A stretch of DNA of 64,000 nucleotides from the IMG/VR virus record IMGVR_UViG_3300043010_000145; one strand, given 5' to 3'. Made by a program: the position numbers and the translations under genes. This DNA comes from a virus. Its lineage: Duplodnaviria; Caudoviricetes. The notes under the pieces are model-generated. The model ran no database searches, was not told the origin of the DNA, and saw only the letters and a program-made list of their open reading frames with translations. Positions 25,301-61,167 of the stretch are shown piece after piece (the first letter of the stretch is position 1; the number at the start of each line of letters is the position of its first letter).

Positions 25301-27820
25301 ACAGATTTTTCTAATGCAAAGGACGGTTCTGTTGTCGGCTGGGTAGTTGATACAAAATTGTATATATCTTCACAGTATAACAAACAAGTTGTATATGCTT
25401 ATTCTGATTCAACTTATATGTTCCAAGATAAGTCTAATTTAACGAATATTGACTTTTCAAATTTAGACACTTCTAAGATTACGAATTTTGTCTATTTCTT
25501 CTTTAATTGTTCTGGTTTGAAAACATTAGATGTTAGCAATTTTAATACAGAAAGTGCCTACAATATGCAATATATGTTCTACGGTTGCAGTGGCTTGACG
25601 GAGTTGGATTTAACTTCTTTCAACACAGAAAATGTTACAGTTGCACAGAGAATGTTTATGAACTGCACAAATCTGGAATCATTAGATATTAGTAGTTTTC
25701 GCACACCTAAATGGGAGCAGTTCTACGGTATGTTTACAAATTGTGAGAGTTTGGAACAGATAGACCTAAGTAATTTTGATACTTCCGTAGCTACAACTAT
25801 GAGTTATATGTTCTCTGGTTGTGAGAGTCTAACATCATTAGATGTTAGTAACTTTAAGACTAGTAAAGTAAAAGATATGGATAGTATGTTTGCTTACTGT
25901 TCTAGTTTAACATCATTAGATGTTAGTAGTTTTGATACTTCAAATGTTACAAGTATGTCATATATGTTTTATAGTATGACTAATATTAAGACATTGGATT
26001 TATCTAACTTTAATACTGCAAAAGTTACAACAATGGAGTATATGTTCTGTTATGATAGCTCTCTTATAACAGCAGATGTTTCTAATTTTAACACAAAAAA
26101 TGTTACAAAAATGCAGTGGATGTTTAATCAATGTAAATCATTAGAATATTTTGATATAAGTGCTTGGGATATGTCCTCCGTTCAATATATAGGGTATTTC
26201 TGCTACGGTGATTCTAAACTTAAAACTATTTATTCCTTAACAGATAAAACTTACCCTAAGCTAAGAGATGGAATGTATGCTTTTGTGGATTGTACAAGCC
26301 TTTCTGGCTCGCAGAAATTTTATCAGTATTATACTTCTATTGCTTACATGACATTTGATTATTATTTAACATATAGAGATAAAACAGATGCTTCTTATAC
26401 TCTCAAAAATGGTTATGATTTAAATGAATTGATACCTGATAATACAACACAAGTTATTTTTACAGATGCTACTGCACCAACTTCTGTTTCTGTTACAGAT
26501 GTGAGCGATACAGAAGATTCTTCCGTTGTGGCTTGGTCAGTAGGTACGAAGTTCTATATTTCTACTCAGACGGAAAATCAGAAAGTATTAGCCAACAGTA
26601 ATACGAATCAGATGTTTAAGGATAAAACATCTTTGACAAGTATTGACTTTACAAATTTTGATACAAGCACGGCTAAATCTTTCTATGGTCTGTTCCGAGG
26701 TTGTACTGCTCTGAAAACCTTAGATTTAAGTAATTTTGATACAAGTCAGGTTACCAATATGTCCCTTATGTTCTATCAGTGCCGTGCTTTAACGAGTTTG
26801 AATGTTTCCATGTTCAACACAAGCAATGCAGTATTGATGGATTCTATGTTTGCATATTGCTCTGGATTAACAGCATTAAATGTGTCTAATTTTAATACAA
26901 GCAAAGCCACCACTATTGCAGGTATGTTTGCTGGGTGTAGTTCAATTACTTCCTTAGATATTTCCAATTTTGATACAAGCAAAGTAACATCTATAAGTTC
27001 TTTATTCTATAATTGTAGAAATCTTACGAATTTAAATATTACAGGATTAACAACAAGTAAAGCTAAGAGCTTGCAAAGTATGTTTAGTGATTGTATTAGT
27101 TTAACAGAGTTAACTCTTGACTTTGATTTAAGTTCTTGTACAACTTTAAATAGTATGTTTTCAAATTGTTACAGTTTAACAAATTTAACATTAAACTTTA
27201 AAAATACAACAGGTATTACGGATATGGATAATTTTGTATCCTCTTGTACGAGTCTGACAAGTATAGACTTAACTTGTCTTGCTAATTCAAGTTTAACGAC
27301 AATGGCAAGTTGGTTTAAGGGTTGTACCAACTTAGTTAGTATAGATTTAAGTATGTTAAATACAAGCAAAGTTACATACTTTACTAGCTTATTTGCTAAT
27401 TGTACATCTCTTGAAGAAGTGAATATGAGTTCATTTGATACGAGTAAGGTAATAAGTATGGCTTATATGTTCCAAAATTGCACTAGCCTTGAATCCATTG
27501 ATTTATCTAATTTTAATACTGCTTCCGTAACATCGAACTATGATATGTTCGCTGGCTGTACTTCTTTAACAGTATTAGATTTATCTTCTTTTACCTTTAC
27601 GAAGGTTTCCAATATGGCAGAGTTTGTTAAAGGTTGTACAAACCTTACAACAATCTATGTGTCCGAGAACCCTACTTTATCCGCCTTAAAACTTGGCGGC
27701 GGAAATGACCGTGAAATGTTCTCCGGCTGTACATCTCTGCAAGGAGCGATTGCTTACTCCGAAGATTGCATCGGCGGTGCATATTTCAACACAGAAACTG
27801 GGTATTTAACAATTAAATAG
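22385..27820 (+). CDS. Large BspA/DUF285 LRR surface protein (four LRR blocks)
   Basis: Paralog of 18965-21628; poly-(NS) linker; four cap-plus-LRR modules. Confidence 0.85.
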   Translation: MTLKNHLQVLFLTLFTLLSSLLTQPTQIFVAAVEDSDDTVLSFTVDTFFTDSTGNQSESYTGGKVYDLSTVSEVASVTNTGSSCYIRAKVTTNDWDDYVTCYFLSDWIMKPDGYYYYMKAVQPNETVTIFEGIEFADGLVKESNKRLSKSVTVGISVDAITDELEADFTSDTPWAALLAYTPELPEEDADVDTDTDSNSNSNSNSNSNSNTANSNNATNSNTSTNGANEIVLPDDKIVTVEKNVVSTGINTNLGYLVALLFAAAALLILIYLHKDSFTPTMQNKTLSLFALFALFGSASICTAGTYSYITSTDQGIDNKVSFAAYEPKAFLETGGNFNSHIPYGTTAIVFTDESAPASASLIDVSEDKDNSVVGWSDNDTFYVSSQQDGVIIYANELSDNMFSYQSDLESIDFTNLNTKDVTTMASMFEGCSSLQSLDLSSFDTSNVTNMYYMFGDCTELETLDISNFDTSKVENMSYMFFSCEDLGTLDLTHFDTSNVTTMERMFHDCMNLTSLNVKGWNTSNVTNMSNMFAYCELLTSLNVSSFDTSNVTDMSCMFYYDRGLEKLNITNFDTSKVTTMQGMFYSCSSIKTLDVSKLETKNVTSTNAMFGYMTSLTTLYAEKDPTVSNVTNSKNMFYGDTVLKGTIKYNSSYVTVSYYNFKGYLTKKVSTYALLSGTDFADAIPSSATKIVFTDSTAPASAELIDMTDGQDGSVVAWLDGTILYISSQKSGQVIYAPTNASGMFENLTNIVSIDLSNLDTTKTTNMKGMFYNCSSLTDVNTDKLDTTSVTDMSFMFGKCSALTDVDTSNFTTSKVTTFEGMFNGCTSLTDLDLSNFTTSAATNTSFMFAACSNLKTVDICHWSFANVTDLNSMFQGDSALTTIYASRTPDLQKVTAHSNMFVGDTNLVGETSFDSANVDANYFNLNSYLTKHDDDSLTYIMNTGLFVRDNISSDMTEVIFTGITAPVGVALTDFSNAKDGSVVGWVVDTKLYISSQYNKQVVYAYSDSTYMFQDKSNLTNIDFSNLDTSKITNFVYFFFNCSGLKTLDVSNFNTESAYNMQYMFYGCSGLTELDLTSFNTENVTVAQRMFMNCTNLESLDISSFRTPKWEQFYGMFTNCESLEQIDLSNFDTSVATTMSYMFSGCESLTSLDVSNFKTSKVKDMDSMFAYCSSLTSLDVSSFDTSNVTSMSYMFYSMTNIKTLDLSNFNTAKVTTMEYMFCYDSSLITADVSNFNTKNVTKMQWMFNQCKSLEYFDISAWDMSSVQYIGYFCYGDSKLKTIYSLTDKTYPKLRDGMYAFVDCTSLSGSQKFYQYYTSIAYMTFDYYLTYRDKTDASYTLKNGYDLNELIPDNTTQVIFTDATAPTSVSVTDVSDTEDSSVVAWSVGTKFYISTQTENQKVLANSNTNQMFKDKTSLTSIDFTNFDTSTAKSFYGLFRGCTALKTLDLSNFDTSQVTNMSLMFYQCRALTSLNVSMFNTSNAVLMDSMFAYCSGLTALNVSNFNTSKATTIAGMFAGCSSITSLDISNFDTSKVTSISSLFYNCRNLTNLNITGLTTSKAKSLQSMFSDCISLTELTLDFDLSSCTTLNSMFSNCYSLTNLTLNFKNTTGITDMDNFVSSCTSLTSIDLTCLANSSLTTMASWFKGCTNLVSIDLSMLNTSKVTYFTSLFANCTSLEEVNMSSFDTSKVISMAYMFQNCTSLESIDLSNFNTASVTSNYDMFAGCTSLTVLDLSSFTFTKVSNMAEFVKGCTNLTTIYVSENPTLSALKLGGGNDREMFSGCTSLQGAIAYSEDCIGGAYFNTETGYLTIK

Positions 27821-32529: not shown

Positions 32530-32919
32530 ATGAGCATAATTGATGATATTAAAGAGTTCCACCAAGTTTTCTTTACCGACCAGCTCCACGAGTTAGGTCT
32601 AGACCAGCCTGATGCAATCATCTCTAAATACCCACAACAGCAACAAAATACCGAATCCGTATCCATGCAAGCCACACCTGAGCAAATGCAACAGCCACAG
32701 CGGCAAGCTATGAATGGATATAATCAAATGCAACAGCAGATGCCTATGCAATCTGCATATAGCACTATGGGCAGTATGTCTATGGGAGGAATTGGTGGCG
32801 GTGGCTTTAATTCCATGGGTTCTATGGGAAGCGGTAGCCTAGGCGGGCAGTACTCTATACCAGATTCTGGGGGGTATTCCCTTGCAGATATTGATTTTGG
32901 TGATGATGACGATTTTTAG
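32530..32919 (+). CDS. Gln/Met/Gly-rich low-complexity protein with acidic-aromatic tail
   Basis: AAGGAGG RBS; ends DIDFGDDDDF. Confidence 0.75.
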   Translation: MSIIDDIKEFHQVFFTDQLHELGLDQPDAIISKYPQQQQNTESVSMQATPEQMQQPQRQAMNGYNQMQQQMPMQSAYSTMGSMSMGGIGGGGFNSMGSMGSGSLGGQYSIPDSGGYSLADIDFGDDDDF

Positions 32920-33005
32920 ATATATCTGATTATTTATGCTATAATTTGGTTAGAGAGTAATACAAGTTTAAGTATATCAAATTTATGCGGTGTAGCTTAA
33001 TGACA

Positions 33006-33198
33006 ATGGTGCGAACCTTTGACACACATAAAATTGTGGGAGGTTCGCACCTATTTTTAGTTAGATGATGACAGTATTTGTGTTTAATTGGAATGAGCAA
33101 CAGGTTTTGTTGGTTTTTGTGGAGTGGTATGCTACAATAAAAATGTAAAAAGAAACAGATTTGAGAGAAAATGCTATTATTTTTGTATTCTTTTTACT
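33006..33198 (+). promoter_or_regulatory. CRISPR leader 1
   Basis: GGTGCGAACC...GGTTCGCACC inverted repeat; homologous to leader 2. Confidence 0.85.
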
Positions 33199-34254
33199 GT
33201 TGCACTCCATACGGAGTGCGTGGATTGAAATCTTGGATTTTTTGCAATTCTAACAAGTCAGCCAGCAGGTTGCACTCCATACGGAGTGCGTGGATTGAAA
33301 TTTCATTACTTTTAGTAATATCTTCTGTAATAGCCAGTTGCACTCCATACGGAGTGCGTGGATTGAAATTTCTGTATCTTTGTCTTTGTCTTTGTCTGCT
33401 TCTACGAGTTGCACTCCATACGGAGTGCGTGGATTGAAATATAAATTGGAGCATAATCATAGGACATGCCCGACGTTGCACTCCATACGGAGTGCGTGGA
33501 TTGAAATGCAATACAACAGATAGGAATAGGCATAGCCTACATGTTGCACTCCATACGGAGTGCGTGGATTGAAATATAAGATTTTTTTCACGGACCAGCT
33601 CCACGAGTTGTTGCACTCCATACGGAGTGCGTGGATTGAAATATTATCAGGTTCGAAGGTGCAAGTATACCCATAGGTTGCACTCCATACGGAGTACGTG
33701 GATTGAAATTTCTATACCTAGTATGTCAAAGATACAGGTACAGTAGTTGCACTCCATACGGAGTGCGTGGATTGAAATATCGAAATATATCTGCCTTGAT
33801 ACATGCCGATTTTGTTGCACTCCATACGGAGTGCGTGGATTGAAATGAATTACTAATGCAATAAATGCTAGTAAAATCAGGTTGCACTCCATACGGAGTG
33901 TGTGGATTGAAATTCCACTCTGTGTGCTCAATGCTTACTGTATCGCCGTTGCACTCCATACGGAGTGCGTGGGTTGAAATATCTGCACCAAGCAAAACAT
34001 AGCACAAATCTTTATGTTGCACTCCATACGGAGTGCATGGATTGAAATTATCATTAATATTGTATAATTGAAGCCATGTTTTTTCCGTTGAACTCAATAC
34101 GGAGTTCATAGAGTTCATGGATTGAAATAATACATACAGCCTTACAGCAATGTTGCACTCCATACGGAGTGCGGGGATTGAAACGAAAGTGCCAGTGATG
34201 GATTACAAAATAACATATAGTTGTACTCCTTACGAGTGTGTGGGTTATCTAAAT
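33199..34254 (+). CRISPR. Type I-C array 1: 16 repeats (trailer repeats degenerate), 15 spacers
   Basis: 33-bp repeat GTTGCACTCCATACGGAGTGCGTGGATTGAAAT; spacers 34-38 nt, one of 23 nt. Confidence 0.98.
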
Positions 34255-34279
34255 CAAAAAGAAAGGGTGGAATACTGCT

Positions 34280-36469
34280 TTGCCAAACCAATCTAAAAAA
34301 TATATTGCACATAAGCGAGCAGACGGCACAGAGCAGTCGCTCGAAACACATCTGCAAAATGTAGCTGATAAAACAAGTTTCTTTTCTGCCCAATTCGGTT
34401 GCCCAACTTGTGGTTCTGTAATTGGTTATAGACATGATGCAGGTAAGTATTCCGCTGAATTTCAGACACGAATAAAAGAACATGGACCAAAGGTAGACCA
34501 TTCTACTTTTGGTGCAATTGGTTTAAAAAACCTACCCGGCTTACGAATGTTTTTGGGTATGCCTATTGCTTGTCATCATACAGGCTTGATTAACACGATG
34601 TTATCCGATAATTCAACTACTCCTAAAACATTTCAAGAGCGAATGAGTGATACTTATGTGATACCTTCCGTGTCCGTGGATTTGCCTAGTATTAAACAAG
34701 GTGATAAAACCTTCAATGCTTGTGTACAAGAGAGAAATAGCAAAATAGCAAATGTTAAAGATACGTTTGCCTATTCTTTTTACATTCGTATGTTATTATC
34801 TTGCCTTGTCGATGCCGATTACTTGGACACAGAAGCTTTTATGACCAATAATCGTGTACAGCGAGGGTATAACATATCTATGCTCAATCTACGAGATAGG
34901 TTAAACGATTATATTAAACCTTGGTTGTCTAATACAGATTTAACTACTGTTGGTGGTCATCGTACACAGATATTAAAAGAATGTATTACATCAGGTACAA
35001 ATAGCGAGCAAGGTTTGTTTACTCTTACAGTACCAACAGGTGGAGGTAAAACGGTATCCTCGTTGGCTTTTGCTTTAAATCATGCTATTGCAAATAAGCT
35101 AGACCGTATCATTTATGTCATACCTTACACAAGTATTATTGAGCAAAATGCACAAGTTTTTAGGAATATTTTAGGTGAAGACATTGTTCTAGAACATCAT
35201 TCCTCAGCCGATTTTGATGATAAAGAGGGTATTGATGAATATAGACTGAAATTAGCAACAGAAAATTGGGATATACCCGTAATTGTTACAACAAGTGTAC
35301 AATTTTTTACATCTTTTTATGCAACAAAAACATCTAAAGTACGAAAGTTGCATAATGTAGCAAATAGTGTGGTGATTTTCGATGAAGTGCAAATGTTGCC
35401 TAGACATATTTTATTACCATGCTTGAAAGTAATAAATACTTTGGTATCATTTTATAATACTACGACTATTTTATGTACTGCTACACAGCCTGCTTTTAAT
35501 ACATTAGGCATTTGGGACAAGCAACCTATGGAAATATGTCATACAGTCAACGAGCAATTTGCTTATTTTGACCGTGTAACTTATGAATATCTAGGCGATA
35601 ACTTGGCAACGGATACCTTTTATGACAAACTCATTACCTCTTATAATACTTATAAACAAGTACTTTGTATTGTAGACAGTAAGCAGAGGGCACAAAAGAT
35701 ATTTGATACTTTGCAAGATAAAGGCCTTACTGTTATGCATTTATCCGCATCTATGACACCATATCACCGCAAGCGAGCTGTTAAGCAAATTAAAGATATG
35801 CTCGCAAATAATGTGCCTGTCATTGTTGTGGCAACAACAGTTGTTGAGGCTGGTGTAGATTTAGATTTCCCTATTGTGTATAGACAAATAGCTGGCATGG
35901 ATTCAATTATACAGGCTGCTGGCCGTTGTAACCGCAACGGAAATCGTTCTAAACTGGATAGTTTTGTATATATTTTTGATTTTGCACAAAATAAGAGTTG
36001 GCTGAAGAGACAAGTAGAATATGTGGAAACACTTAAATATTTGCAGATAGACGTGAATCTTTTAAAAGACATAAATGCTTTGCAAAAGTATTTTTCTGAG
36101 TTGTATAATTTAGCCCAAGGTGGAGGTGGCCATAACAGTTTAGACGACAATGGTGTATTAGATTGTTTCTCTAAATTTACTCCCCAGTACATTGATGCAA
36201 GTGCTAAATTCGATTTTTTTGACACGGAAAATGGTGGTTTAACTTTATATATAGATTACGATTTGTATACTAGTATTGCTAGTAAGGAAATTGTTACAAA
36301 TGCGGATTATCGGGTATTAAGTCAGCATGCTGTATCTATAACAAAGCAGCGAGCTAGTGAATTACAAAATGATAATATCATATTACCAGCTTTTGGTACG
36401 GACTATTGTTTTGTATTGATTAACCCAGAATATTATGATACCAAATATAAAGGGTTATTATACCAATAA
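34280..36469 (+). CDS. cas3: CRISPR-associated helicase/nuclease Cas3
   Basis: HD domain (HDAGK, HH, DADYLDT), VPTGGGKT, DEVQ, TAT, QAAGRCNR. Confidence 0.95.
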   Translation: MPNQSKKYIAHKRADGTEQSLETHLQNVADKTSFFSAQFGCPTCGSVIGYRHDAGKYSAEFQTRIKEHGPKVDHSTFGAIGLKNLPGLRMFLGMPIACHHTGLINTMLSDNSTTPKTFQERMSDTYVIPSVSVDLPSIKQGDKTFNACVQERNSKIANVKDTFAYSFYIRMLLSCLVDADYLDTEAFMTNNRVQRGYNISMLNLRDRLNDYIKPWLSNTDLTTVGGHRTQILKECITSGTNSEQGLFTLTVPTGGGKTVSSLAFALNHAIANKLDRIIYVIPYTSIIEQNAQVFRNILGEDIVLEHHSSADFDDKEGIDEYRLKLATENWDIPVIVTTSVQFFTSFYATKTSKVRKLHNVANSVVIFDEVQMLPRHILLPCLKVINTLVSFYNTTTILCTATQPAFNTLGIWDKQPMEICHTVNEQFAYFDRVTYEYLGDNLATDTFYDKLITSYNTYKQVLCIVDSKQRAQKIFDTLQDKGLTVMHLSASMTPYHRKRAVKQIKDMLANNVPVIVVATTVVEAGVDLDFPIVYRQIAGMDSIIQAAGRCNRNGNRSKLDSFVYIFDFAQNKSWLKRQVEYVETLKYLQIDVNLLKDINALQKYFSELYNLAQGGGGHNSLDDNGVLDCFSKFTPQYIDASAKFDFFDTENGGLTLYIDYDLYTSIASKEIVTNADYRVLSQHAVSITKQRASELQNDNIILPAFGTDYCFVLINPEYYDTKYKGLLYQ

Positions 36470-36498: not shown

Positions 36499-36603
36499 AT
36501 TTAGAAGCAAAGTTTTTTTGTATTCCCACATTCTATGTTGTATACTGAGTTTGTAAATAAAAGCGAGTGCTTTTACTGCTTTTACACGGAAAGGGGCAAA
36601 TAT

Positions 36604-37278
36604 ATGGGAAAAGGTATAATCTTGCACGTCTGGGGAGACGGTGCTGTTTATAGCAGACCAGAGTTGAAAGTCGAACGATACAGTTATGATGTTATAACAC
36701 CATCTGCAGCAAGAGGTATTTTAGATAGTATATTGTGGCATCCCGGTATGGAATGGGTTATTGATAAAATACATGTTATCAAACCAATACAAAGGGCAAG
36801 TATACAGCGGCGAGAATTGAAAAAGGTAATATCTAGTCGAAATGCGGCCAATATGCAAGATATTAGTATTTTAACATCTGATACAAGCAATAGTACTCTA
36901 CGATATACATCTTATTTGAAGCAAGTTGAGTATGTCATTGAAGCACATTTTATTATGACACCGCAAGCACACCCAAGCGATTATGACGGTAAATTCTATA
37001 AAATGGCAATCCGGCGAATGAGTAACGGGCAATGCTACAAGCAGCCATATTTTGGTTGCAGAGAATTCCCTGTCCATTTTGAACTTTTACGAAGTCCAGA
37101 AGATATACCAAAGTCTTATTATGCCAATACGGACACATATGATTTAGGTGTTATGCTTTACGATATGGATTATCAGTACAATAAGCCAAGCACAGTTAGA
37201 AAGATATCACCCATATGGTATCATGCTATTATGCACAAAGGTGTTATTGATTTAACAAATGTGGAGTTATTACGATGA
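36604..37278 (+). CDS. cas5c: Type I-C Cas5 (Cas5c/Cas5d)
   Basis: RPELKVERYSYDVITPSAARGIL...PYFGCREF. Confidence 0.95.
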   Translation: MGKGIILHVWGDGAVYSRPELKVERYSYDVITPSAARGILDSILWHPGMEWVIDKIHVIKPIQRASIQRRELKKVISSRNAANMQDISILTSDTSNSTLRYTSYLKQVEYVIEAHFIMTPQAHPSDYDGKFYKMAIRRMSNGQCYKQPYFGCREFPVHFELLRSPEDIPKSYYANTDTYDLGVMLYDMDYQYNKPSTVRKISPIWYHAIMHKGVIDLTNVELLR

Positions 37279-39203
37279 TATTACAGGATTTAGTAGCATG
37301 CTACGATATGTTGGCAGAAGATGAAACAGTACAAATACCAAAGATGGGCTATTCTTTTAGCCCAGTAGACTGGTGTTTAGTAGTTAATGACCAAGGCGAT
37401 TTAGTGGGTATGTATACCTGTGAAAGTACAACAGGTGTTACACCTAGTAAGGACCAACCAAAATCTGAATCTAAATCAAAAGCTAAGAAGCAGAAAACAC
37501 TCCGAAAAACTATGCTTGTACCTATTTTACCACCTCGTACAAGGAATGTAGATGCAGGAGTATTATATGATAATTTAGAATATATGTTGGGTTATAATAG
37601 CTTAGGTTATACGGGCACGACAGTAGAAAAGTATGTAAATTTTAGAGATAAAAATACGGAATTTCTAAAAGATATTGATACACCCGCAGCCAAAGCTGTT
37701 GTGAATTTCTATGCAAATTGGTCTCCACAGAATATTTCTAATCATTCTATTATTTCTGAACTTGGACAAGTACAAAAAATAGATGGTAAACAAATGGCTG
37801 TTTTTGTTTACGAGGGCACAGGCGAGTATGTGCTGCAAGATGAAGAAATCAAAGCAAAATGTGATAGTACTTGTGCAAAAAGGTATGCAAAAGATTTCAT
37901 AAAGCAAACAGATGAAACTCAATCTGCCATATCTTTGGTTTCTGGCGATAAAGTTGATGCCACTTGCTATAAGCATACTCAGATTAAAGGATTGCATAAT
38001 TCTCAGCCTAGCGGTGCCTCTTTGGTATCCTTTAATGCAGACTCTTTTTGTTCTTACGGTTTAGAGCAGTCCTATAATGCACCTGTCGGTGTCATTGATA
38101 TGTATAAATATACAACAGCTCTTAATTATCTTATAAAAGCTGGTAGCGGATATAATCGAAGAATTGATGATACAACCACAATTGTGTATTGGTCTGCTGA
38201 TAAAAGTGTGAACGATATAGATTCAGACCTATTCAATACTGATAGTGCAAAGTTGACAGAAGTATTGCATTTATTACAAGGCAATACAACTACTATTACT
38301 GATAAACATCTGCAAGTAGATTTATCTGCACCTTATTTTATTGCTTTTTTTAAGCTAAATCATGGTGCAAGGATATATGTTGAGCGGTATATCACAACCA
38401 ATGTGGGCAATTTGTTGCAAGGTTCGTATAACCACTATAAGCGATTAGAGATGTTTAGAGCATCCTATGAATCAGCAAGCGGGGTAGCACCCTATCATAT
38501 TTTGCAACAAACACTTCGAGAAGCAGATAGAAAAGGTGAAACTTATTCTGGCAAGTTTGAGGGTAGTATACTATCTGATTTATATATGTCTATTGTAACA
38601 GATACACCTTATCCACAGGCTCTTGCTGATAGTATTATGAATCGTATAAGTAAGTCTATGCAAGATGATTACCAGATAAATTATACAAATATGTCTTTTT
38701 TGAAGGCGTATTTGATTAAGAATAAAAATCTACAAGGAGGAGAAAAATATATGGCATTAAATGAAGAATCTGAGAATACAATGTATAATATTGGTCGTCT
38801 AATTGCAGTTTGTGATTATGCACAAACCATTTATAGTAATGATAAGAGGACTAGACCAATTCGCAAAAAATATCTTGTAGGTGTAACGGAACACCCATCA
38901 AGCTTGTTACCGCAGCTCTTAGCAAAACACAATGTGTATGTAACAGCCCTCCTTGCCAAAGATACCGAAAAAAAGCATACAGGCACTTTCCTTGATAGAT
39001 GTACAGCAGATATTTTAGCAAAAATTGATAATGTGCCTGCAACTACAAAGCAAGAGGACCAGATGATGTGCTATTTAGGGTATTATCATCAGTTAAAAAA
39101 GTTCTATACAAAAAAAACTGATAAAGATACCGTAGATAAAGATACAATTGATGTCAATACAGATATGCAGTCCAATACAGAAACAACAGAAGGAGATGAC
39201 TAG
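37275..39203 (+). CDS. cas8c: Type I-C Cas8c/Csd1
   Basis: MILQDL start, LVSFN..SF.SYG..Q..NAP, LGYYHQ. Confidence 0.93.
   Translation: MILQDLVACYDMLAEDETVQIPKMGYSFSPVDWCLVVNDQGDLVGMYTCESTTGVTPSKDQPKSESKSKAKKQKTLRKTMLVPILPPRTRNVDAGVLYDNLEYMLGYNSLGYTGTTVEKYVNFRDKNTEFLKDIDTPAAKAVVNFYANWSPQNISNHSIISELGQVQKIDGKQMAVFVYEGTGEYVLQDEEIKAKCDSTCAKRYAKDFIKQTDETQSAISLVSGDKVDATCYKHTQIKGLHNSQPSGASLVSFNADSFCSYGLEQSYNAPVGVIDMYKYTTALNYLIKAGSGYNRRIDDTTTIVYWSADKSVNDIDSDLFNTDSAKLTEVLHLLQGNTTTITDKHLQVDLSAPYFIAFFKLNHGARIYVERYITTNVGNLLQGSYNHYKRLEMFRASYESASGVAPYHILQQTLREADRKGETYSGKFEGSILSDLYMSIVTDTPYPQALADSIMNRISKSMQDDYQINYTNMSFLKAYLIKNKNLQGGEKYMALNEESENTMYNIGRLIAVCDYAQTIYSNDKRTRPIRKKYLVGVTEHPSSLLPQLLAKHNVYVTALLAKDTEKKHTGTFLDRCTADILAKIDNVPATTKQEDQMMCYLGYYHQLKKFYTKKTDKDTVDKDTIDVNTDMQSNTETTEGDD
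38751..39203 (+). CDS. cas11: Internally translated Cas11 small subunit
   Basis: In-frame ATG (MALNEES..YNIGRL) preceded by AAGGAGG inside cas8c, as known for type I-C. Confidence 0.8.
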   Translation: MALNEESENTMYNIGRLIAVCDYAQTIYSNDKRTRPIRKKYLVGVTEHPSSLLPQLLAKHNVYVTALLAKDTEKKHTGTFLDRCTADILAKIDNVPATTKQEDQMMCYLGYYHQLKKFYTKKTDKDTVDKDTIDVNTDMQSNTETTEGDD

Positions 39204-39204: not shown

Positions 39205-40089
39205 ATGACAGCTTTAAATAACAAATATGATTTTATATTGCTTTTTGATGTAACTGACGGTAACCCAAACGGAGACCCTGATGCAGACAATATGCCAAGA
39301 AGAGACTATGAAACAGGGCATGGTATTGTTACAGATGTTTGTATTAAACATAAAATCCGTAATTATGTCGAGCAAGTAAAAAAAGGCGAGGACGGTTATG
39401 ATTTATATATTAAGTCAGGTATTTCATTAAATACAAAAGATAATCAAGCTCTGGATGAATTAGGTGTTCCTAAATCTAAGACGAAATCAGGGAAAAAAGA
39501 TAAAGATACGGATAAAAAAATAAAAGAGTATATGTGCCATAAATATTTTGATATTCGTACCTTTGGTGCAGTTATGACAACATTTACACAAGGGGCATTA
39601 AATTCAGGACAAATAACAGGCCCAGTTCAACTTACTTTTGCTCGTAGTGTTGACCCTATTACTGTGAACAATTATACTTTGACTCGTTGTGTAATTACTA
39701 AGGAAGACGAAGCCGAAACTAAGAATAATACTATGGGTAAAAAACCTATGGTTTACTATGGCTTATATAAAATGTATGGACATATTAATGCAAATCTAGC
39801 AAACGATGTAACACATTTTTCCGAGGAAGACTTAGAGTTACTTTGGCAAGCAATCGAGGGTATGTTCGAATTGGACCATGCGGCTGCACGAGGAACTATT
39901 AATTTACGAGAGCTGATTATTTTCAAGCATGAATCTGTATATGGTAATTGTGCAAGCTATAAGCTGTTTGACCGTGTGCATATCACTAAAAAAGATGGTG
40001 TAGTATATCCAAGAGAATATTCTGACTATACTGTGGATATTGATACAAAAGATATGCCTGCAAATGTTACTCTGATTCGCAGAGGTTAA
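39205..40089 (+). CDS. cas7c: Type I-C Cas7/Csd2
   Basis: GNPNGDPDADNMPR, FDIRTFGAV, GPVQL, TMG.K. Confidence 0.95.
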   Translation: MTALNNKYDFILLFDVTDGNPNGDPDADNMPRRDYETGHGIVTDVCIKHKIRNYVEQVKKGEDGYDLYIKSGISLNTKDNQALDELGVPKSKTKSGKKDKDTDKKIKEYMCHKYFDIRTFGAVMTTFTQGALNSGQITGPVQLTFARSVDPITVNNYTLTRCVITKEDEAETKNNTMGKKPMVYYGLYKMYGHINANLANDVTHFSEEDLELLWQAIEGMFELDHAAARGTINLRELIIFKHESVYGNCASYKLFDRVHITKKDGVVYPREYSDYTVDIDTKDMPANVTLIRRG

Positions 40090-40123: not shown

Positions 40124-40328
40124 AATGGTGCGAACCTTTAACACACATAAAAGTGCGGGAGGTTCGCACCTATTTTTTAGTTAAATGTTGTTAAATGTTG
40201 ACAGTATTTGGTGTTAGTTAGAATAAGCAACGAGTTTTTGTTGTTTTATGCAGAGGGTATGGTATAATAAAAATACAAAAAGAAATAGATTTAATGAAAA
40301 CTGCTATTATTTTTGTATTCTTTTTGCT
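40124..40328 (+). promoter_or_regulatory. CRISPR leader 2
   Basis: Diverged duplicate of leader 1. Confidence 0.85.
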
Positions 40329-41376
40329 GTTGCACTCCATACGGAGTGCGTGGATTGAAATACCTACACGGCTAGGCACGGGTATAGACTGGACTGTTGC
40401 ACTCCATACGGAGTGCGTGGATTGAAATTGTAGATATTGCATGCAGCCAAGTAATCCATTTAAGTTGCACTCCATACGGAGTGCGTGGATTGAAATATTT
40501 TTGTGTGTAGTACGGATACCATAGGTGTGTGAGTGTTGCACTCCATACGGAGTGCGTGGATTGAAATTACTAGCTATATGGATTTTGCTAAAAATCCGCT
40601 GGGTTGCACTCCATACGGAGTGCGTGGATTGAAATTTCAAAAATAAGCTTGGCTTGTGAATCATCATTAGGTTGCACTCCATACGGAGTGCGTGGATTGA
40701 AATAATAATTTAATCAATTTTTTAACTACAAAATAACAGTTGCACTCCATACGGAGTGCGTGGATTGAAATAGGAAAAGAAAAGCACAAGTCATTCGACT
40801 TGTGCTAGTTGCACTCCATACGGAGTGCGTGGATTGAAATCATCTTTTAAGATTCGTACTATGTCGAGTACATGTTGCACTCCATACGGAGTGCGTGGAT
40901 TGAAATCTCCGTGACCATACACAAGCCAAGACTGACTTCACGTTGCACTCCATACGGAGTGCGTGGATTGAAATAACCAAGCTACAACAGAAGCACCTGA
41001 AGGAACTGAGGTTGCACTCCATACGGAGTGCGTGGATTGAAATACTTGCAGGCAACAACCCGCCCCGCTTTATATTAGCAGGTTGCACTCCATACGGAGT
41101 GCGTGGATTGAAATTACGGTTTTACTGATACCCGTAGAAAGTGTATCATGTTGCACTCCATACGGAGTGCGTGGATTGAAATAGCCTATGTTAGCAATCT
41201 TTACCAATACACAGAGTTGCACTCCATACGAAGTGCGTGGATTGAAATCTGAAAGGAATGAGATAATTCTGCAACTAGCAGGCAAAATTGCACTCCATAC
41301 GGAGTGCGGGGATTGAAATATTACTTGTACAGGCAAAGAACTCACAGGTGATAGTTGCACTCCATACGGAGTGGAT
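40329..41376 (+). CRISPR. Type I-C array 2: 16 repeats (last truncated), 15 spacers
   Basis: Same 33-bp repeat; no spacer shared with array 1; terminator at 41385-41415. Confidence 0.98.
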
Positions 41377-41469
41377 GACACTAGAAAAGCCACCATGATT
41401 ACATGGTGGCTTTTGCTTTTTAACTAAAACACATACATTATATGATATAATCAAATAAAAGGAGGATTT

Positions 41470-42585
41470 ATGGGACTAAGCAAATTTATTTTATCACTAT
41501 CCGTGTATATCATTAAACTATTTACATTTTGGTTGCCCCAAGATAGAAATCGCATCACATGTATTACTTGCACGGGCAAAGAGCTAACAGGAGATATGGA
41601 GCAAGTGTACAACTACCTTGAAACACATACTAATTATAAGTTAAAGAAAATTTGCTACAACTACAAGCCAACCATTAAGAGCAAACTAGGTTACTTTTGG
41701 AATTGCTTGCACCAATACATTGCCCTAAAACGTAGCAAATTAGTCATTATCAACGACAACAACTACATCATCTCCCGCCACAAGCCAAAACACACACAAG
41801 TTATTCAACTTTGGCACGCCTGTGGTGCTGTGAAAAAATGTGGCAATCAAACCAAAAGAGCTTACAAAATCAAAAATTATGACATAGTTACAGCCACATC
41901 ACCAGCTTGGCGAGATGTCTACACACAAGCATTTAATGTCAATCGCTGGCAAGTACATGTAACGGGCATGCCTCGTATTGATTACTTTTTGTCTGATTAC
42001 ACCGATAAAATTGCTGCTTTTTATGATAAATACCCAATGTTGAAAGATAAAAAAATTGTATTGTATGCACCAACATTTCGTGGCACAACCACTAAGAAAG
42101 ATATACATTTAGATGTGCCAAATTATGCAGATTTACTTTCTAAGCTAAATACTGACACAAATGATTATGCTATTGTCTGCAAATATCATCCGCTTTTGCA
42201 GATTAAGACAGAGCAAACGGATACTATCATAGATTGCTCAGGCGAGGATTTATACACCTTAATGCACATTTGCGATTGCTTGATTACTGATTACAGCAGT
42301 ATTATTTTCGACTACTCCTTGTTGGGTAAACCTTGTATTTTATATGTTCCTGACTTAGACAATTACACAGACAATGTTGGTTTAAACTTAACCATAGATG
42401 AATTGCAAGATTTTGCCACAGTTATCAAAAGTGAAGAAGATTTACCCACAGCCATTCAGGGTATCGACACCACCACAGCATCTGTTAAAGCAAAAGAATT
42501 TGCAAACAAATATATGCCAAATGCAGATACCAATAACTGCAAAAGAGTTTGTGAATTAATTGAGCAGAGAATGACTTATTATTGA
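41470..42585 (+). CDS. CDP-glycerol glycerophosphotransferase family (TagB/TagF-like)
   Basis: QLWHACGAVKK, GMPRID, LYAPTFR, ITDYSSIIFDY. Confidence 0.9.
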   Translation: MGLSKFILSLSVYIIKLFTFWLPQDRNRITCITCTGKELTGDMEQVYNYLETHTNYKLKKICYNYKPTIKSKLGYFWNCLHQYIALKRSKLVIINDNNYIISRHKPKHTQVIQLWHACGAVKKCGNQTKRAYKIKNYDIVTATSPAWRDVYTQAFNVNRWQVHVTGMPRIDYFLSDYTDKIAAFYDKYPMLKDKKIVLYAPTFRGTTTKKDIHLDVPNYADLLSKLNTDTNDYAIVCKYHPLLQIKTEQTDTIIDCSGEDLYTLMHICDCLITDYSSIIFDYSLLGKPCILYVPDLDNYTDNVGLNLTIDELQDFATVIKSEEDLPTAIQGIDTTTASVKAKEFANKYMPNADTNNCKRVCELIEQRMTYY

Positions 42586-46806: not shown

Positions 46807-47152
46807 TTAACCTTTTCTTTTGCTCTAATTATCGGGTATTTCTTGCACTTATTTATTTGCTCTTAGTTAGTTTATAGCATTCTTAATTAAAGCCAGCCTA
46901 TCTAATATTAGCTTATCTAATATTAGATTATCTGCACATCTTCGTGTGCATCATTTTTATCCACCACAGAATTTTTCTAAGGAAAAACCCTATAAAAGAT
47001 GACAACTAGGCCTAACAAGAGGAACAACTATACCAAGATTTTCCTCTCAAAAACCCTATTTCCGCACCAAAAACCCACTTTTCCAACCTGTCTGCGAGAA
47101 ACTTTTCAAACCTCTCGCAGACTTTTTACGATTTTTTCTACACCCAGCCAAT

Positions 47153-47186
47153 GGCTTGGCTTGGCTTGGCTTGGCTTGGCTTGGCT
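47153..47186. repeat. GGCTT pentamer microsatellite
   Basis: About 7 tandem copies. Confidence 0.9.
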
Positions 47187-47259
47187 ACAATACTTTACTA
47201 GCTTGCCTATTGCTATATCTGGTTAAATAAGGGAAATAGAGAGCCATATTGAAATTGAG

Positions 47260-47400
47260 CTAGAATAAGATTGAGCCATGTTTAGATTAAGCCAGAATAA
47301 GATTAAGCCAGAATAAGATTAAGCCAGAATAAGATTAAGCCAGAATAAGATTAAGCCAGAATAAGATTGAGCCAGAATAAGATTTAGCCAAAAAAGATAG
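47260..47400. repeat. 16-bp tandem repeat GATTAAGCCAGAATAA
   Basis: About 6-8 copies. Confidence 0.9.
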
Positions 47401-47502
47401 AGCAAGATAATCTGTATTTTTCTGTATTTTATTGGTTAGGACAGGCGAGCAACCTAGCATCACTTCGTTCTGCTGACCGCTCGCCTATCTTTGTAGGCAG
47501 CT

Positions 47503-47712
47503 AGCACAAGGTTTAGCAGAGCAAGGTTTAGCAGAGCAAGGTTTAGCAGAGCAAGGTTTAGCAGAGCAAGGTTTAGCAGAGCAAGGTTTAGCAGAGCAAG
47601 GTTTAGCAGCACAAGGTTTAGCAGAGTAAGGTTTAGCAGAGCAAGGTTTAGCAGAGCAAGGTTTAGCAGAGCAAGGTTTAGCAGAGCAAGGTTTAGCAGA
47701 GCAAGGTTTAGA
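47503..47712. repeat. 15-bp tandem repeat AGCAAGGTTTAGCAG
   Basis: About 14 copies. Confidence 0.95.
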
Positions 47713-47819
47713 TAAATCAACACATTTTAAATTTCAATAACTTAGATAGGCGGGATACCTCGTTTTCGTTTCACTCAAACGGACTTCCCGCCTATCGTTG
47801 TAGGTAGTTAAATTTAACC

Positions 47820-48160
47820 GTAGTTAAATCTAGCCATAGCTAAACCAAGGCAAAGTTAAATCTAGCCATAGCTAAACCAAGGCAAAGTTAAATCTAGCCA
47901 TAGCTAAACCAAGGCAAAGTTAAATCTAGCCATAGCTAAACCAAGGCAAAGTTAAATCTAGCCATAGCTAAACCAAGGCAAAGTTAAATCTAGCCATAGC
48001 TAAGCCAAGGCAAAGTTAAATCTAGCCATAGCTAAGCCAAGGCAGAATTATATACAGCCATAGCTAAACCAAGGCACAGATAAACTTAGCCGTAGCTAAA
48101 CCAAGGCAGAGCTAAATCTAGCCCTAGCTAAACCAAGGCAGATTTATATTCAGCCATATT
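47820..48160. repeat. 32-bp (2x16) tandem repeat AAAGTTAAATCTAGCCATAGCTAAACCAAGGC
   Basis: About 10 copies, degenerate at the right end. Confidence 0.95.
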
Positions 48161-48424
48161 ATATTTTTACTCACCCCTACCCCACCACCTTATCTAAAAC
48201 AAGATTGTGATAGAGCCAGCGGAAGATATAGAGCCAGAGAAAGAGCTTCAGCCAGAAGGTATAGAACGAGCAACGGTAACGGCTGACTCTATTACGGCAA
48301 GAACAATCGCCCCGATACTCGTACCATACGGGGTTTCATCTACTGCAAGATATTACTGCTGCCAGCGGTAGAGATTTATATAGTAAGAAGCAGGCGGAAG
48401 ACCTAAAGACTTTCCGCCTGCTTT

Positions 48425-48735
48425 TGTCTTAGCTCTATCTTGCCCTATCTTGCCTTGCCTTATCTTGTCTTGCCTTGCCTTGTCTTGCCTTGTCTCTTGT
48501 CTTAGCTCTATCTTGCCTTGCCTTATCTTGTCTTGTCTCTTGCCTTAGCTCTATCTTGCCCTACCTTGCCTTGCCTTGTCTCTTGTCTTATCTCTTACCT
48601 TGTCTTGCTCTATCTCTATCTTGCTCTATCTCTATCTTGCTCTGTTTTTCTTGCTCTATCTCTATCTTGCTCTGTTTCCTCTTGCTCTATCTCTATCTTG
48701 CTCTGTTTCCTCTTGCTCTATATTTGTCTTGCACC
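48425..48735. repeat. Pyrimidine-rich TCTTGC/CTATCT low-complexity repeats
   Basis: Direct inspection. Confidence 0.85.
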
Positions 48736-48879
48736 GTGATAATCAGCCTGCCCTTTCTTGTTCGGGTACTTCATAGCCCAGACACCTATCTGCTCGCCGC
48801 AATGTTTTCTTCTGTTGCTTCTTGCTTCTTGCTTCTTGTTTCTTGCTTCTTGCTTCTTGCTTGGGTATCTTCACTCAGC

Positions 48880-53930: not shown

Positions 53931-54539
53931 TCAATCTTTTGGTACATATCTGCTCAAATCCAGAATATACTCTTCACCATACTTGCCAAACCAATCCACA
54001 AGAGCATTTGCAATATCACAATAAATATCATACTGCTCGCCCAGTGTTTCTTCACTTACACCATTCTGCCACAGAATTTGAATTGGTGCTCCTTCCTCTT
54101 CAAGTGTTTTGTATAAATCAGCAACCAAAGAAATTCTATTCGCAGCTTCTTCCTGTTCTAAGACATCTAAGCGATAGAATATCTTATCCCCGCATTCATT
54201 CACCAGCTGTAAAGCAAATACCTCTTGTAATTGGTGTTTGCTTGCAAGCACACGGTCAATATGATACTGTCCTCGCAGATAATTTACGGGTACATGTAGG
54301 AATAGATGCATTTTCGGTACGGATTCACAAGCTGCCGTAAAGTGCGACAATGCACCGCCTAATATCCTTCGGGTATTTTCTTGTCGAAGATGGATTTCCA
54401 TACGAAACAAAGCATTATCAGGATAATGAAATTCAAAATCAGATAGATAGCTCGTTGTATTATAGAATTCATCAAAATAATATACTTGCTGAATGTTATC
54501 TGCCTCCGTAATAGCAGGCAATACCAATTTGTTTTCCAT
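53931..54539 (-). CDS. Paralog array member (subfamily ending LSRYVPK)
   Basis: Homologous to 55289-55909 and 56994-57587. Confidence 0.8.
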   Translation of the reverse strand: MENKLVLPAITEADNIQQVYYFDEFYNTTSYLSDFEFHYPDNALFRMEIHLRQENTRRILGGALSHFTAACESVPKMHLFLHVPVNYLRGQYHIDRVLASKHQLQEVFALQLVNECGDKIFYRLDVLEQEEAANRISLVADLYKTLEEEGAPIQILWQNGVSEETLGEQYDIYCDIANALVDWFGKYGEEYILDLSRYVPKD

Positions 54540-54556
54540 AGTCCGTCCCCTCTTTT

Positions 54557-55138
54557 CTACATCAAATATTTCTGCATGAACTCTTGCACTGCACGAGTAT
54601 AATTCATACCAATCTCAAAACATTCAGGAAACTCATCAATTTTTGTCAAAGTCGCTTCTTCTGTTTCACCAAAAGGACTTGTTGTGCTTGATGTCAGCAT
54701 AATATTTAAGTCCACGGTATCTGTCTGCTTCACAATAAGAGTTAAAAACAACTCATCATCCTCCGCAGAAAGCAGTTTCACCAAGTAATAATCTTTTTTC
54801 CCCAAATTCATCCAATACACATCGCCCGTTGCATGTAATTCTGTCCGAAAAGCATCCAGCGGTACTTCTTCCATACCAAATCGTGTCAATTTGTATTTTA
54901 CATGCTTGCCATTCAGCAATCCCGTTACATCTTCATCGGTATACTCAAAACACTCGTTCTTGCATTGATTGATTACATATAAACCTTGCTCGCCAAAGTA
55001 ATAGTGAATATCCCAGTATTGAACCGAATCGAATTCATCTTTCAGAAAGAATTGAATACCATTCAGATTGAATTCCTCCGCCGTAGGTTTCAGTTCTTCC
55101 CGCCCGTCCATTCTTGTCAAATGTTTTACTTTCATCAT
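54557..55138 (-). CDS. Paralog array member (divergent)
   Basis: Ends AVQEFMQKYLM; AAGGAG RBS. Confidence 0.75.
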   Translation of the reverse strand: MMKVKHLTRMDGREELKPTAEEFNLNGIQFFLKDEFDSVQYWDIHYYFGEQGLYVINQCKNECFEYTDEDVTGLLNGKHVKYKLTRFGMEEVPLDAFRTELHATGDVYWMNLGKKDYYLVKLLSAEDDELFLTLIVKQTDTVDLNIMLTSSTTSPFGETEEATLTKIDEFPECFEIGMNYTRAVQEFMQKYLM

Positions 55139-55288
55139 ATTTTTATGCTCCTTTATACACACATATTAGCATAGAATAGTATATTATGCAATATCTTCAT
55201 AGCATTTCCTAGGGTATTCACTCCTAATTTTTAAATTTACAATACTAAAAACACAGGAATTCCCTACGGGAATTCCTGCTCTTTTTTC

Positions 55289-55909
55289 TTAGCACTCTTT
55301 CGGCACATATCTGCTCAAATCCAGAATATACTCTTCACCATACTTGCCAAACCAATCCACAAGTGCATTTACAATGTCGCAATAAATATCATATTGCTTG
55401 CCCAGTGCATCATCATCTACACCATTCTGCCACGAAACTTGAATGAATGCTTTTTCGGAATAATGGGCATTACATAAATCAGCCATCCAATAAATCCCAT
55501 CTTCGCCCTCCGCAGTTCCTTCAACTGCATCTAAGCGAAAGAACAATTCATCTCCGTATTCATTCAGCAATTGTATAGCGAACATGTCCCGTAAAAGAAG
55601 CGGTATTGGACTTGGAAGAACACAATCAATATGATAATGCCCTCGCAGACATTTCACAGGCATATCGAAGGATAGAAACATACGGGGAATTTCTGAACAA
55701 AGTTTATTTAGGTTGTGTAGTGTTCCCTCTAAGGTTGTTTCGCCATTTTTCTGCTGCACAGTGAGTTCCATATCATAAATGGCAGTCTCATCTAAACGAA
55801 ATAGTAGAAATGTTGTGTATCTAGTTCTATTGTAAAATGTATTGAATACATAGGTTTGTGAAGTTTCATTTGCTGCTGTAAAAGCAGGCAATACTAACTT
55901 GTTTCTCAT
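55289..55909 (-). CDS. Paralog array member (subfamily ending LSRYVPK)
   Basis: 3' end nearly identical to the 53931 gene. Confidence 0.8.
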   Translation of the reverse strand: MRNKLVLPAFTAANETSQTYVFNTFYNRTRYTTFLLFRLDETAIYDMELTVQQKNGETTLEGTLHNLNKLCSEIPRMFLSFDMPVKCLRGHYHIDCVLPSPIPLLLRDMFAIQLLNEYGDELFFRLDAVEGTAEGEDGIYWMADLCNAHYSEKAFIQVSWQNGVDDDALGKQYDIYCDIVNALVDWFGKYGEEYILDLSRYVPKEC

Positions 55910-55922
55910 ATTTATCACTCCT

Positions 55923-56462
55923 TTATGCAATTTCTTCTAAAATATAATCTTGCACAGCCTGAACCCATTCTGCAAACCAATCCAAATTATACTCCTGTGT
56001 ATGCATCCAGCCGTCCATATCTCGCTTTGCTCTGCTTTCAGACATCAGCCACAGCTGGAATGGTGTCTTTTCCGAATGTTTTTCTAACTCTTCAACTTCC
56101 AAATAAACTGTATCACCTAGCATAGAAACAAAAGGAATACGGTATTGCAGCATTTTCTCAGGTTCATAATATACTTCTTCCTTGCATTGAAGCGGAGCTA
56201 ACAGAGTATGCATAGGAATGTCATTTATCCAAAAATATTTGAAGTAGCATTCTGCTTCATCTAATTTCTCAAAAGCACATCTGTGCAAAATTGCATGCAC
56301 AAGACAATCACCGTCATCCATTTGAGCCTGAAACAGCCAGTTTTGAGCCAAGTTGCCTTCTTCATCTTGCACAATGAAGCCACTCGCTGGGTATTTCTTT
56401 ATACCTGCTTCTGTGTTCTCTACATGCAGCACATCTATTTGCAGTTTCTTCATTTTTATCAT
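55923..56462 (-). CDS. Paralog array member
   Basis: SMLGDTVYL; AVQDYILEEIA. Confidence 0.8.
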   Translation of the reverse strand: MIKMKKLQIDVLHVENTEAGIKKYPASGFIVQDEEGNLAQNWLFQAQMDDGDCLVHAILHRCAFEKLDEAECYFKYFWINDIPMHTLLAPLQCKEEVYYEPEKMLQYRIPFVSMLGDTVYLEVEELEKHSEKTPFQLWLMSESRAKRDMDGWMHTQEYNLDWFAEWVQAVQDYILEEIA

Positions 56463-56463
56463 T

Positions 56464-57003
56464 TCAGGCAACCTCTTCCAAAATAAAATCTTGCACCGCA
56501 TGAACAACATCTAAGCACCAGTCGATATCCACACCTTCATCTTCTGCCGAAACCAGTTCCCACTCAGACCAATTAGGCACAACTTTCTCGGCAGGCCACA
56601 AATTAAAACGAACCTTTTTCTTTTCACCTTTCTCCACTGTTTCCCAGTAAATATTCAAATAGAATTTATCTCCTAGCACAGTTCCCAAGGGTATTTTATA
56701 GTGGTGCGGTAGTGGAGTGTATTTGTAGAACTCGCCCGTACTTTGTAGAGGCACATAGAGTTTCTCTAATACCATATATTGCAAAATGACAGACACAATG
56801 TCTGCTGCATGTTCTCCTTGAAAAGCACCGCCGTAGAAAACACTATATGCGGTATCTTTTTCCACCACCCAATATTGAGTAGGGTATCCACTCTCCTCAG
56901 CATACAAATAGAAATCACCCTTCCGCAACTCCATTTCACCTGTATCTTTACAATACTGCTTGGGAAACGGTTTTGTTGTTTTCTTTACTCTAATCATCTC
57001 CAC
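56464..57003 (-). CDS. Paralog array member
   Basis: TVLGDKFYL; AVQDFILEEVA. Confidence 0.8.
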   Translation of the reverse strand: MEMIRVKKTTKPFPKQYCKDTGEMELRKGDFYLYAEESGYPTQYWVVEKDTAYSVFYGGAFQGEHAADIVSVILQYMVLEKLYVPLQSTGEFYKYTPLPHHYKIPLGTVLGDKFYLNIYWETVEKGEKKKVRFNLWPAEKVVPNWSEWELVSAEDEGVDIDWCLDVVHAVQDFILEEVA

Positions 57004-57587: not shown

Positions 57588-58059
57588 ACTCGCTCCTTTC
57601 TATGCAGTTATATGTTTCCATTACTTATATTTGTGCAATTCTATGCTTATATTATATATTATGTGCTTTAAATAAGCAAGCAGGCAATCGGGTATTTTCT
57701 TCCAACTCTTCCCTCTATCTAAGTGCTTTATATAAATCCCCAGCTATACAGAGCAATAAAGTTGCTCTGTATAGCTAATCATTCTGAAAGAATGATTTAG
57801 GCAGATTTCAGAACACATTTGCACCAGAGCGATTTCTAGCACAACTCCTTGCCAGTTGTCCACATTTTCGCCTAGCACCTATGCTCACGAGCTTTATTTC
57901 GTAAAACTTCATTTAGCACACTCTCCGCATTTCTGCAAGTCCAGAAAATGCACTCTCCGAGTTTTTAGAACAGAAACAACTTTATCTAATTTTTCTCGAA
58001 AAAGTTCAATAAATTTCTTCTACAAATAAACAAAGCCACACCTACGGTGCGGCTTCTTT

Positions 58060-58632: not shown

Positions 58633-58657
58633 TTTCCGTCCTCTCCCTTTACCGCAT

Positions 58658-59224: not shown

Positions 59225-59261
59225 GCCGTACTACCTCTCCTTTTCCGTTTTATCTATCTGT

Positions 59262-59801: not shown

Positions 59802-59924
59802 TTTGTGTACCTCACTGTATCTGTCTATAATATACACCCATTTCCTACATATTACAAGCAAATAATAGCATATTTTACCTTCTTCACACCACAAAAAGAA
59901 AGCAGTACTCCGTACTGCTTTCTT

Positions 59925-61150: not shown

Positions 61151-61167
61151 TATTTTGCTCCTCAGTT

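Follow-up and report, generated by a model that had tools for sequence, protein, structure and literature searches.

Why does the spacer at the far end of a CRISPR array read almost like a stretch of the gene next door, differing from it only where the encoded peptide does not change? The question is raised by a 64,000 nt stretch of the virus record IMGVR_UViG_3300043010_000145 (Duplodnaviria; Caudoviricetes), which was analysed at its full length and is referred to here as the window. A type I-C gene module, cas3-cas5c-cas8c-cas7, is positioned between two CRISPR arrays in it, and the spacer concerned is the last one of array 2. Our preferred reading, to which we assign a probability of about 0.6, is that this spacer guides an attack on sibling elements carrying a diverged allele of the neighbouring gene. 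The general pattern is already described; the present case adds two results to it: in the resident gene, a Cys takes the place of a 97%-conserved Phe at the codon where the protospacer adjacent motif (PAM) is expected, and the genes on both flanks of the locus appear to be targeted. The cas genes, arrays, leaders, repeats, terminator, flanking open reading frames (ORFs) and matched stretches discussed below all lie on the plus strand.

The spacer in question (41320..41353; 34 nt) is located at the trailer end of array 2, and its look-alike (41563..41596) starts at a codon boundary in a gene for a TagB/TagF-like CDP-glycerol/ribitol phosphotransferase (41470..42585; 371 aa, PF04464) that has kept the family-invariant residues. 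Both stretches are identical at 29/34 positions, including all of positions 1-8; the five mismatches, at positions 9, 12, 21, 24 and 30, fall without exception on codon position 3 of the ORF, and spacer and resident stretch both encode ITCTGKELTGD. If five mismatches were placed at random, all of them would land on third positions with P = 0.0017. A chance match is ruled out: 400 shuffles of the spacer yielded at best 24/34 in the window, and the best window matches of the other spacers, apart from one array-1 spacer (33576..33609), amount to 20-25 of 33-38 positions. Within array 2, the spacer is the oldest one, since its neighbours on the trailer side are a terminal repeat in truncated form and, beyond it, a terminator, while the extra spacer of two sister contigs (L001 and L004) sits at the opposite, cas7-proximal end. 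All of this accords with the original prediction: match, synonymous third-position mismatches, common peptide and TGT flank were re-read exactly as claimed, and its designation of the spacer as the oldest was borne out.

The triplet on which the interpretation hinges is codon 31 of the resident gene (41560..41562), a TGT coding for Cys, immediately 5' of the look-alike. The orientation of the repeat is given by its 3' end, which is the I-C handle; the plus-strand spacers are therefore the guides of the CRISPR RNAs (crRNAs), and the PAM is expected 5' of the plus-strand protospacer. When the 119 best homologues are aligned, 116 have Phe and 2 have Leu at codon 31, and Cys does not occur. The Phe codons of the TagB/TagF-like gene itself comprise ten TTT and one TTC, and TGT is one transversion away from TTT. 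In the native I-C system of Legionella pneumophila, TTC ranks first and TTT second among the PAMs in both acquisition and interference, and >99.5% of the acquired spacers trace to TTC/TTT or to slips or flips from these; TTC, CTC, TCC and TTT are functional in Bacillus halodurans, and TGT is absent from the seven PAMs giving at least 95% protection (PMC5602111). Because position 31 is almost always Phe in the homologues and both Phe codons are I-C PAMs, the donor allele most likely had TTT or TTC at this codon, as judged from the alignment, and hence an I-C PAM; in the resident gene, Cys31 means that the PAM is lost. In type I Cascade, every sixth position is flipped out and unpaired. Mismatches 12, 24 and 30 coincide with such positions, which leaves only 9 and 21 as mismatches that affect pairing. 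With the seed (1-8) intact, it is apparently above all the PAM codon that keeps the resident copy from being attacked.

What kind of gene the spacer came from is indicated by the peptide. The nearest homologues of the TagB/TagF-like gene are remote (best non-self match 45% identity among 5.8 billion protein clusters) and read ISLTQDHLTSD-like, not ITCTGKELTGD, at the position of the spacer. T33, C34 and G36, unusual residues of the resident protein that the 119 nearest homologues do not have, are shared by the spacer; the donor was therefore a close relative of the resident gene and not an ordinary tag gene, diverged from it at ~5/11 third positions (~45%). A self-copy that has drifted within the array is an unlikely source because a neutral spacer would change at all codon positions, and positions 1-2 show no change. 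A host tag gene is likewise unlikely, as ITCTGKELTGD is absent from the sampled homologues, none of which is more than 45% identical, leaving an unsampled host as a possible source. A paralogue on the same element was rejected as donor: no protein of >45% identity was found in a database that contains the 577-kb contig of the element.

Several further searches were directed at relatives of the locus. A degenerate pattern covering all synonymous spellings of ITCTGKELTGD gave 0 matches in viral, genome and metagenome contigs; it missed the resident gene too, so these contig collections do not contain the present element. A homologue search confined to residues 20-62 returned only the protein itself. 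The 90% clusters of eight proteins of the locus and its flanks (including P0001, the left-flank ORF, Cas7 and Cas8c) have 1-2 members each and hold no variant alleles, and related loci were found neither in metagenome nor in viral contigs. In blastn searches of the gene and both arrays against phage and plasmid records, only the repeats of other arrays were hit, and two leader-end spacers had 0 matches in viral contigs. As to the source of the spacer, the claim of the original prediction that it derives from a protein-conserved homologue is upheld by the synonymous-only pattern and by the unusual peptide, which is absent from the 119 homologues (≤45% identity). Its conjecture of a Phe-codon PAM gains support from Phe in 116/119 homologues and never Cys. 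Regarding its alternative donors, a sibling element or a host tag gene, the search for the exact protospacer came back empty and the host gene has become the unlikely option; the trinucleotide of the donor and its replicon type are what we infer from these observations.

A second spacer shows a parallel relationship to the other flank. Spacer 6 of array 1 (33576..33609) matches a stretch (32561..32594) of the left flanking ORF (32530..32919; 129 aa), of which it is apparently a diverged allele, at 27/34 positions, with mismatches at 2, 3, 5, 6, 11, 14 and 17. Read in frame, the spacer encodes HKIFFTDQLHE and the resident stretch HQVFFTDQLHE, which differ by two conservative replacements, and the pair differs at 5/11 third positions, the same proportion as at the right flank. 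This equal silent divergence on both sides would fit a single diverged donor lineage. The resident 5' context is GAG TTC C|ACC, in which one base comes after TTC so that TCC adjoins the look-alike; an offset of this kind is the '+1 slip' signature of I-C acquisition, and TCC itself works in two I-C systems (PMC5602111). Here, the resident copy is protected by the seed mismatches 2, 3, 5 and 6. The left ORF has no homologues in the 5.8 billion protein clusters; its product is rich in Q, G and M, and its acidic tip, DIDFGDDDDF, recalls the C-terminal tail of single-strand-binding proteins. No further spacer, including the array-1 trailer spacers and the extra spacer of L001, resembles the window or ~24 kb of extra flank, which is 100% identical to the window where the two overlap; the ~88 kb compared in total correspond to ~15% of the 577-kb element. 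Elsewhere in the window, at ~9727-9810, ~51 nt resembling the end of ORF 8963-9274 (9224-9274) through its stop codon come after a solitary I-E-like repeat, GTGTTTGCCCCGCACGGGCGGGGATG; the differences appear mostly silent by eye, and cas genes matching this repeat type are absent from the window.

The machinery that would act on these guides is encoded between the arrays, and all four proteins score above the NCBIfam type I-C cut-offs: cas3 (34280..36469), which combines an HD nuclease (TIGR01596, residues 21-184) with a helicase (TIGR01587, core residues 248-583); cas5c (36535..37278; TIGR01876, 170 bits against a cut-off of 85); cas8c/csd1 (37275..39203; TIGR01863, 276 bits, cut-off 219); and cas7/csd2 (39205..40089; TIGR02589, 309 bits, cut-off 182). 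Pfam matches additionally support the Cas proteins. The interference module is complete; genes and repeat alike identify the system as type I-C, here without the adaptation module. Array 1 is located upstream of cas3, and a gap of 240 bp separates cas7 from array 2. The element was present in ~10 samples, all retrieved copies being 100% identical, and its contigs reach 577 kb. At a distance of 18-20 kb from the I-C locus, whose Cas3 has an HD domain of its own, two stand-alone proteins consisting of the Cas3 HD nuclease only are encoded (14652-15545 and 16009-17124; PF18019 / TIGR01596).

Both arrays are built from the same 33-nt repeat, GTTGCACTCCATACGGAGTGCGTGGATTGAAAT, of which 29 copies were counted, and their spacers measure 33-38 nt. 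The repeat has the stem-loop typical of I-C (7-bp hairpin, -12.9 kcal/mol), followed by an 11-nt 3' part that ends in ATTGAAA(C/T) and becomes the 5' handle of the crRNA; its 3' end reads GGATTGAAAT. Similar repeats occur in I-C-like arrays of Paenibacillus and Bacillus; the exact repeat had 0 matches in genome contigs. A 5.2-kb record from human faeces, MT838487.1 ('Bacteriophage sp.'), aligns to each of the two arrays in several segments (71-75% identity) and probably carries a related array. Array 1 (33199..34260) comprises ~16 spacers and has degenerate trailer repeats; array 2 (40329..41374) comprises 15 full repeats, 15 spacers and the truncated terminal repeat. The leader of array 2 (40124..40328) is ~73% alike to that of array 1 (33005-33198). 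Around the last array-2 spacer, the penultimate repeat (41287..41319), the source of the 5' handle of the last crRNA, is a variant (G1A, T23G) with an intact hairpin, and the truncated repeat (41354..41374) keeps 6/7 hairpin pairs and could still provide the 3' hairpin of this crRNA. An intrinsic terminator (41385..41420) with a 13-bp stem and a T run closes the array transcript. The trailer of array 1 (34049-34260) is decayed, with an internal insertion in one repeat (~34087-34128) and one spacer of 23 nt; one of its repeats has T23G, as does the penultimate repeat of array 2, and both arrays may share an ancestral repeat form.

Array 2 differs between copies of the element. In L001 (8825-8859) and L004 (17833-17867), which stem from JGI (Joint Genome Institute) datasets 3300043086 and 3300043085 and are otherwise 100% identical to the window, one extra spacer, AAACAGAAAATAAAATCGTCATTGATGTAATGACA, absent from the window, is inserted between the leader and the first spacer. 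The array therefore still acquires spacers, despite there being no cas1, cas2 or cas4 nearby. Besides these two datasets, the element is present in JGI datasets 3300043009, 3300035504, 3300035506, 3300049151 and 3300049152 and in sequencing runs SRR11793927, SRR11793928 and SRR11793836. Apparent spacer variants at the end of a further contig (L007) were dismissed as assembly noise, the seven mismatches being clustered at the contig end.

Some other features of the window are of a different nature. It starts with an M60 enhancin-like peptidase, and two giant surface-type proteins (898 and 1822 aa) made of DUF285 and leucine-rich repeats are encoded at 18932-27820. A 1.7-kb stretch (47150-48870) is dense in short tandem repeats with periods of 5, 15, 16, 32 and 43 nt, among them 10.5 copies of a 32-nt unit (47822-48158), and several sister contigs stop within it. 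On the minus strand, 53931-63182 is occupied by ~15 head-to-tail ORFs of 180-240 aa that have no Pfam matches; ten of them align weakly (10-52% identity) and have the motifs LGD, W and AVQDF..EY in common, suggesting that they may be a family of diverged paralogues.

How, then, could the last spacer of array 2 work? We propose that it was acquired in the normal type I-C manner from a diverged TagB/TagF-like allele on a related, unsampled sibling element, in which the codon 5' of the protospacer would be a Phe codon (TTT/TTC) and hence an I-C PAM, the resident TGT going unrecognised. The last repeat-spacer-repeat unit would be transcribed with the rest of the array and processed by Cas5c; such processing is proposed in view of the handle and hairpin preserved in the upstream repeat and of the truncated repeat, which retains most of its hairpin pairs. 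The crRNA would then be loaded into the element's own Cas5c-Cas8c-Cas7 complex, which would recruit Cas3 and destroy an incoming sibling with the Phe allele, resulting in exclusion between elements. The proximity of the targets to the arrays could be mechanical, reflecting an acquisition hotspot, could result from selection that keeps guide and resistant allele linked, or could reflect a drive. Hotspots of acquisition around active arrays are known from Pyrococcus furiosus and Escherichia coli (PMC5737086).

Several points weigh against this proposal. Searches of protein clusters, of viral, genome and metagenome contigs and of phage and plasmid records yielded neither the exact protospacer nor a close allele. 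None of the spacers of either array has a known target among viral contigs and phage and plasmid records, and the PAM of the present system is consequently assumed from other I-C systems, a TTC PAM being backed indirectly by the Phe codons in the context of the two look-alikes. In the vicinity of the locus, cas4-cas1-cas2 was found neither adjoining the arrays nor among the domains of the flanking ORFs. What points to a mobile element is the gene content (numerous ORFs lacking homologues; methylases and an SNF2 helicase; housekeeping genes absent) and not a verified hallmark gene of phages or conjugation. Given its age, moreover, the last spacer could be a functionless relic.

A less probable history, though the strongest competitor, is that the spacer is the scar of autoimmunity: taken from the element's own flank, survived through a change of the PAM codon from Phe to Cys, and left as a relic while silent drift accumulated. 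Self-acquisition is in keeping with the documented hotspots around active arrays (PMC5737086), and a unique Cys at a position that is Phe in 97% of homologues, one transversion from TTT, does resemble a PAM escape; both repeats flanking the spacer are degenerate, and no sibling has been sampled anywhere. The resident gene also has the rarer codon at 4/5 mismatches, a weak and non-significant tendency that is too weak to count. However, a single PAM change suffices for escape and leaves the five additional silent changes unexplained, three of which lie at the non-pairing every-sixth positions, where they are useless for this purpose. Neutral drift of the spacer, in turn, predicts that the majority of differences lie on the spacer side and at codon positions 1-2, where there are none (rough P ~0.01). 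Finally, the 5/11 third-position divergence and the two replacements of the left-flank spacer fit one donor better than two escapes.

A more far-reaching scenario, which we consider improbable, is a homing drive: cassette and resistant flanking alleles would form a selfish unit, held together by tight linkage of guide and resistant allele. Guided against the foreign alleles of both neighbours, Cas3 would attack a co-resident sibling on either side of the site of the cassette, and repair templated by the resident copy would spread the cassette along with its resistant flanking alleles. The only two spacers with look-alikes in ~88 kb match immediate neighbours, 410 and 190 bp from the arrays, but array-proximal acquisition hotspots explain this proximity equally well, and other matches were compared over only ~15% of the 577-kb element. 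Each of the resident alleles is resistant, the right one via its PAM and the left one via its seed; the neighbour-allele pattern recurs within the element, if the I-E-like repeat at ~9727 is included; and targeting that depends on Cas3 skews recombination in Haloferax in favour of the CRISPR-positive parent (bioRxiv 10.1101/2025.06.18.660351). On the other hand, Cas3 degrades processively and does not leave a clean break, and no sibling, empty site or conversion tract was observed. Less probable still is a regulatory guide, similar to CreA or a crRNA-like RNA (crlRNA), by which Cascade would bind the neighbouring gene without cutting and tune its transcription. The unit's position between degenerate repeats, 190 bp from a partial target to which its seed is fully complementary, would suit such a role, and crRNA-like regulators beside cas loci are known (bioRxiv 10.1101/2023.03.03.530964). 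Yet the target carries TGT, which is no recognised I-C PAM (PMC5602111), and lies inside an ORF, not at a promoter; the complementarity spans the whole spacer and not the seed alone, and the strict confinement of mismatches to third positions points to a coding homologue as the source.

If exclusion of siblings is indeed what the spacer brings about, a large uncultured element uses a type I-C system that it encodes itself to keep others of its kind in check, and is protected by a single residue replaced at the PAM codon in an enzyme that is conserved otherwise. Phe versus Cys at codon 31 would then be a clean pair of alleles for measuring CRISPR-mediated sibling exclusion. Targeting at both flanks would add a bacterial, cas-equipped case to the unexplained array-proximal targets in archaeal viruses, and it bears on the question of whether CRISPR loci bias recombination to their own advantage; were the drive scenario true, the locus would represent a naturally occurring homing or poison-antidote drive, guided by CRISPR, that acts between large mobile elements.

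Among known systems, two that use guides resembling neighbouring DNA were considered and rejected. CRISPR-associated transposons are characterised by Tn7-like tnsA/B/C-tniQ, the absence of Cas3 and a guide that matches the attachment site beside the element end. Such a homing guide does not agree with the full Cas3 of the locus, with flanking ORFs that contain no transposase domains or with the position of the cassette on the PAM-proximal side of the right target, which is the wrong geometry. CreTA and crRNA-like regulators are recognised by pairing only partly, within the seed, with a promoter that has a functional PAM next to it; here, the target comprises codons 32-43 of the ORF, 29/34 positions match along the entire spacer, and TGT forms the flank. 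With the canonical I-C systems of B. halodurans, Desulfovibrio vulgaris and L. pneumophila, the locus shares the signature genes, the repeat and protospacer contexts that fit TTC/TTT or a +1 slip; unlike in these systems, there is no adjacent cas4-cas1-cas2, and the cas genes stand between two arrays whose leaders are related. Self-targeting spacers were reportedly interpreted by Stern et al. in 2010 as autoimmunity from which cells escape via mutation of PAM or target. The present spacer is similar in that it resembles a gene of its own replicon, has a non-functional PAM at the target and is accompanied by degenerate repeats; in contrast to such cases, its differences are all silent and go beyond what escape needs, and a second spacer is equally diverged, which suggests a foreign allele.

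The closest parallels are found on mobile elements. In the Saccharolobus portogloboviruses SPV1 and SPV2, the spacers of mini-arrays target close relatives, the orthologous locus of the carrier is point-mutated and the targets lie near the arrays, which is unexplained (Medvedeva et al. 2019, PMC6858448). The locus described here resembles these in having its arrays on an apparently mobile element, a mutated resident locus and array-proximal putative targets: on the right, TGT replaces TTY and is accompanied by the five silent mismatches; on the left, the seed is altered at positions 2, 3, 5 and 6. The two differ in that SPV1 and SPV2 co-occur with 100% matches, whereas no targeted relative, and none above 45% protein identity, was found in the present case. 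Moreover, the viral mini-arrays contain 1-2 spacers and depend on host effectors; here, the arrays hold 15-16 spacers and are accompanied by their own cas3-cas5c-cas8c-cas7, and the system is bacterial and of type I-C. CRISPR-Cas loci of plasmids and phages that have no adaptation genes serve competition between elements (Pinilla-Redondo et al. 2022, PMC9071438; Koonin and Makarova 2024, PMC11656645). Like these, the present locus combines an interference module and arrays on an apparently mobile element, without adjoining cas1/cas2 and with a presumed role in competition; what would set it apart is that rival alleles of both flanking genes are the targets, and that an amino acid replaced at the PAM codon protects the resident.

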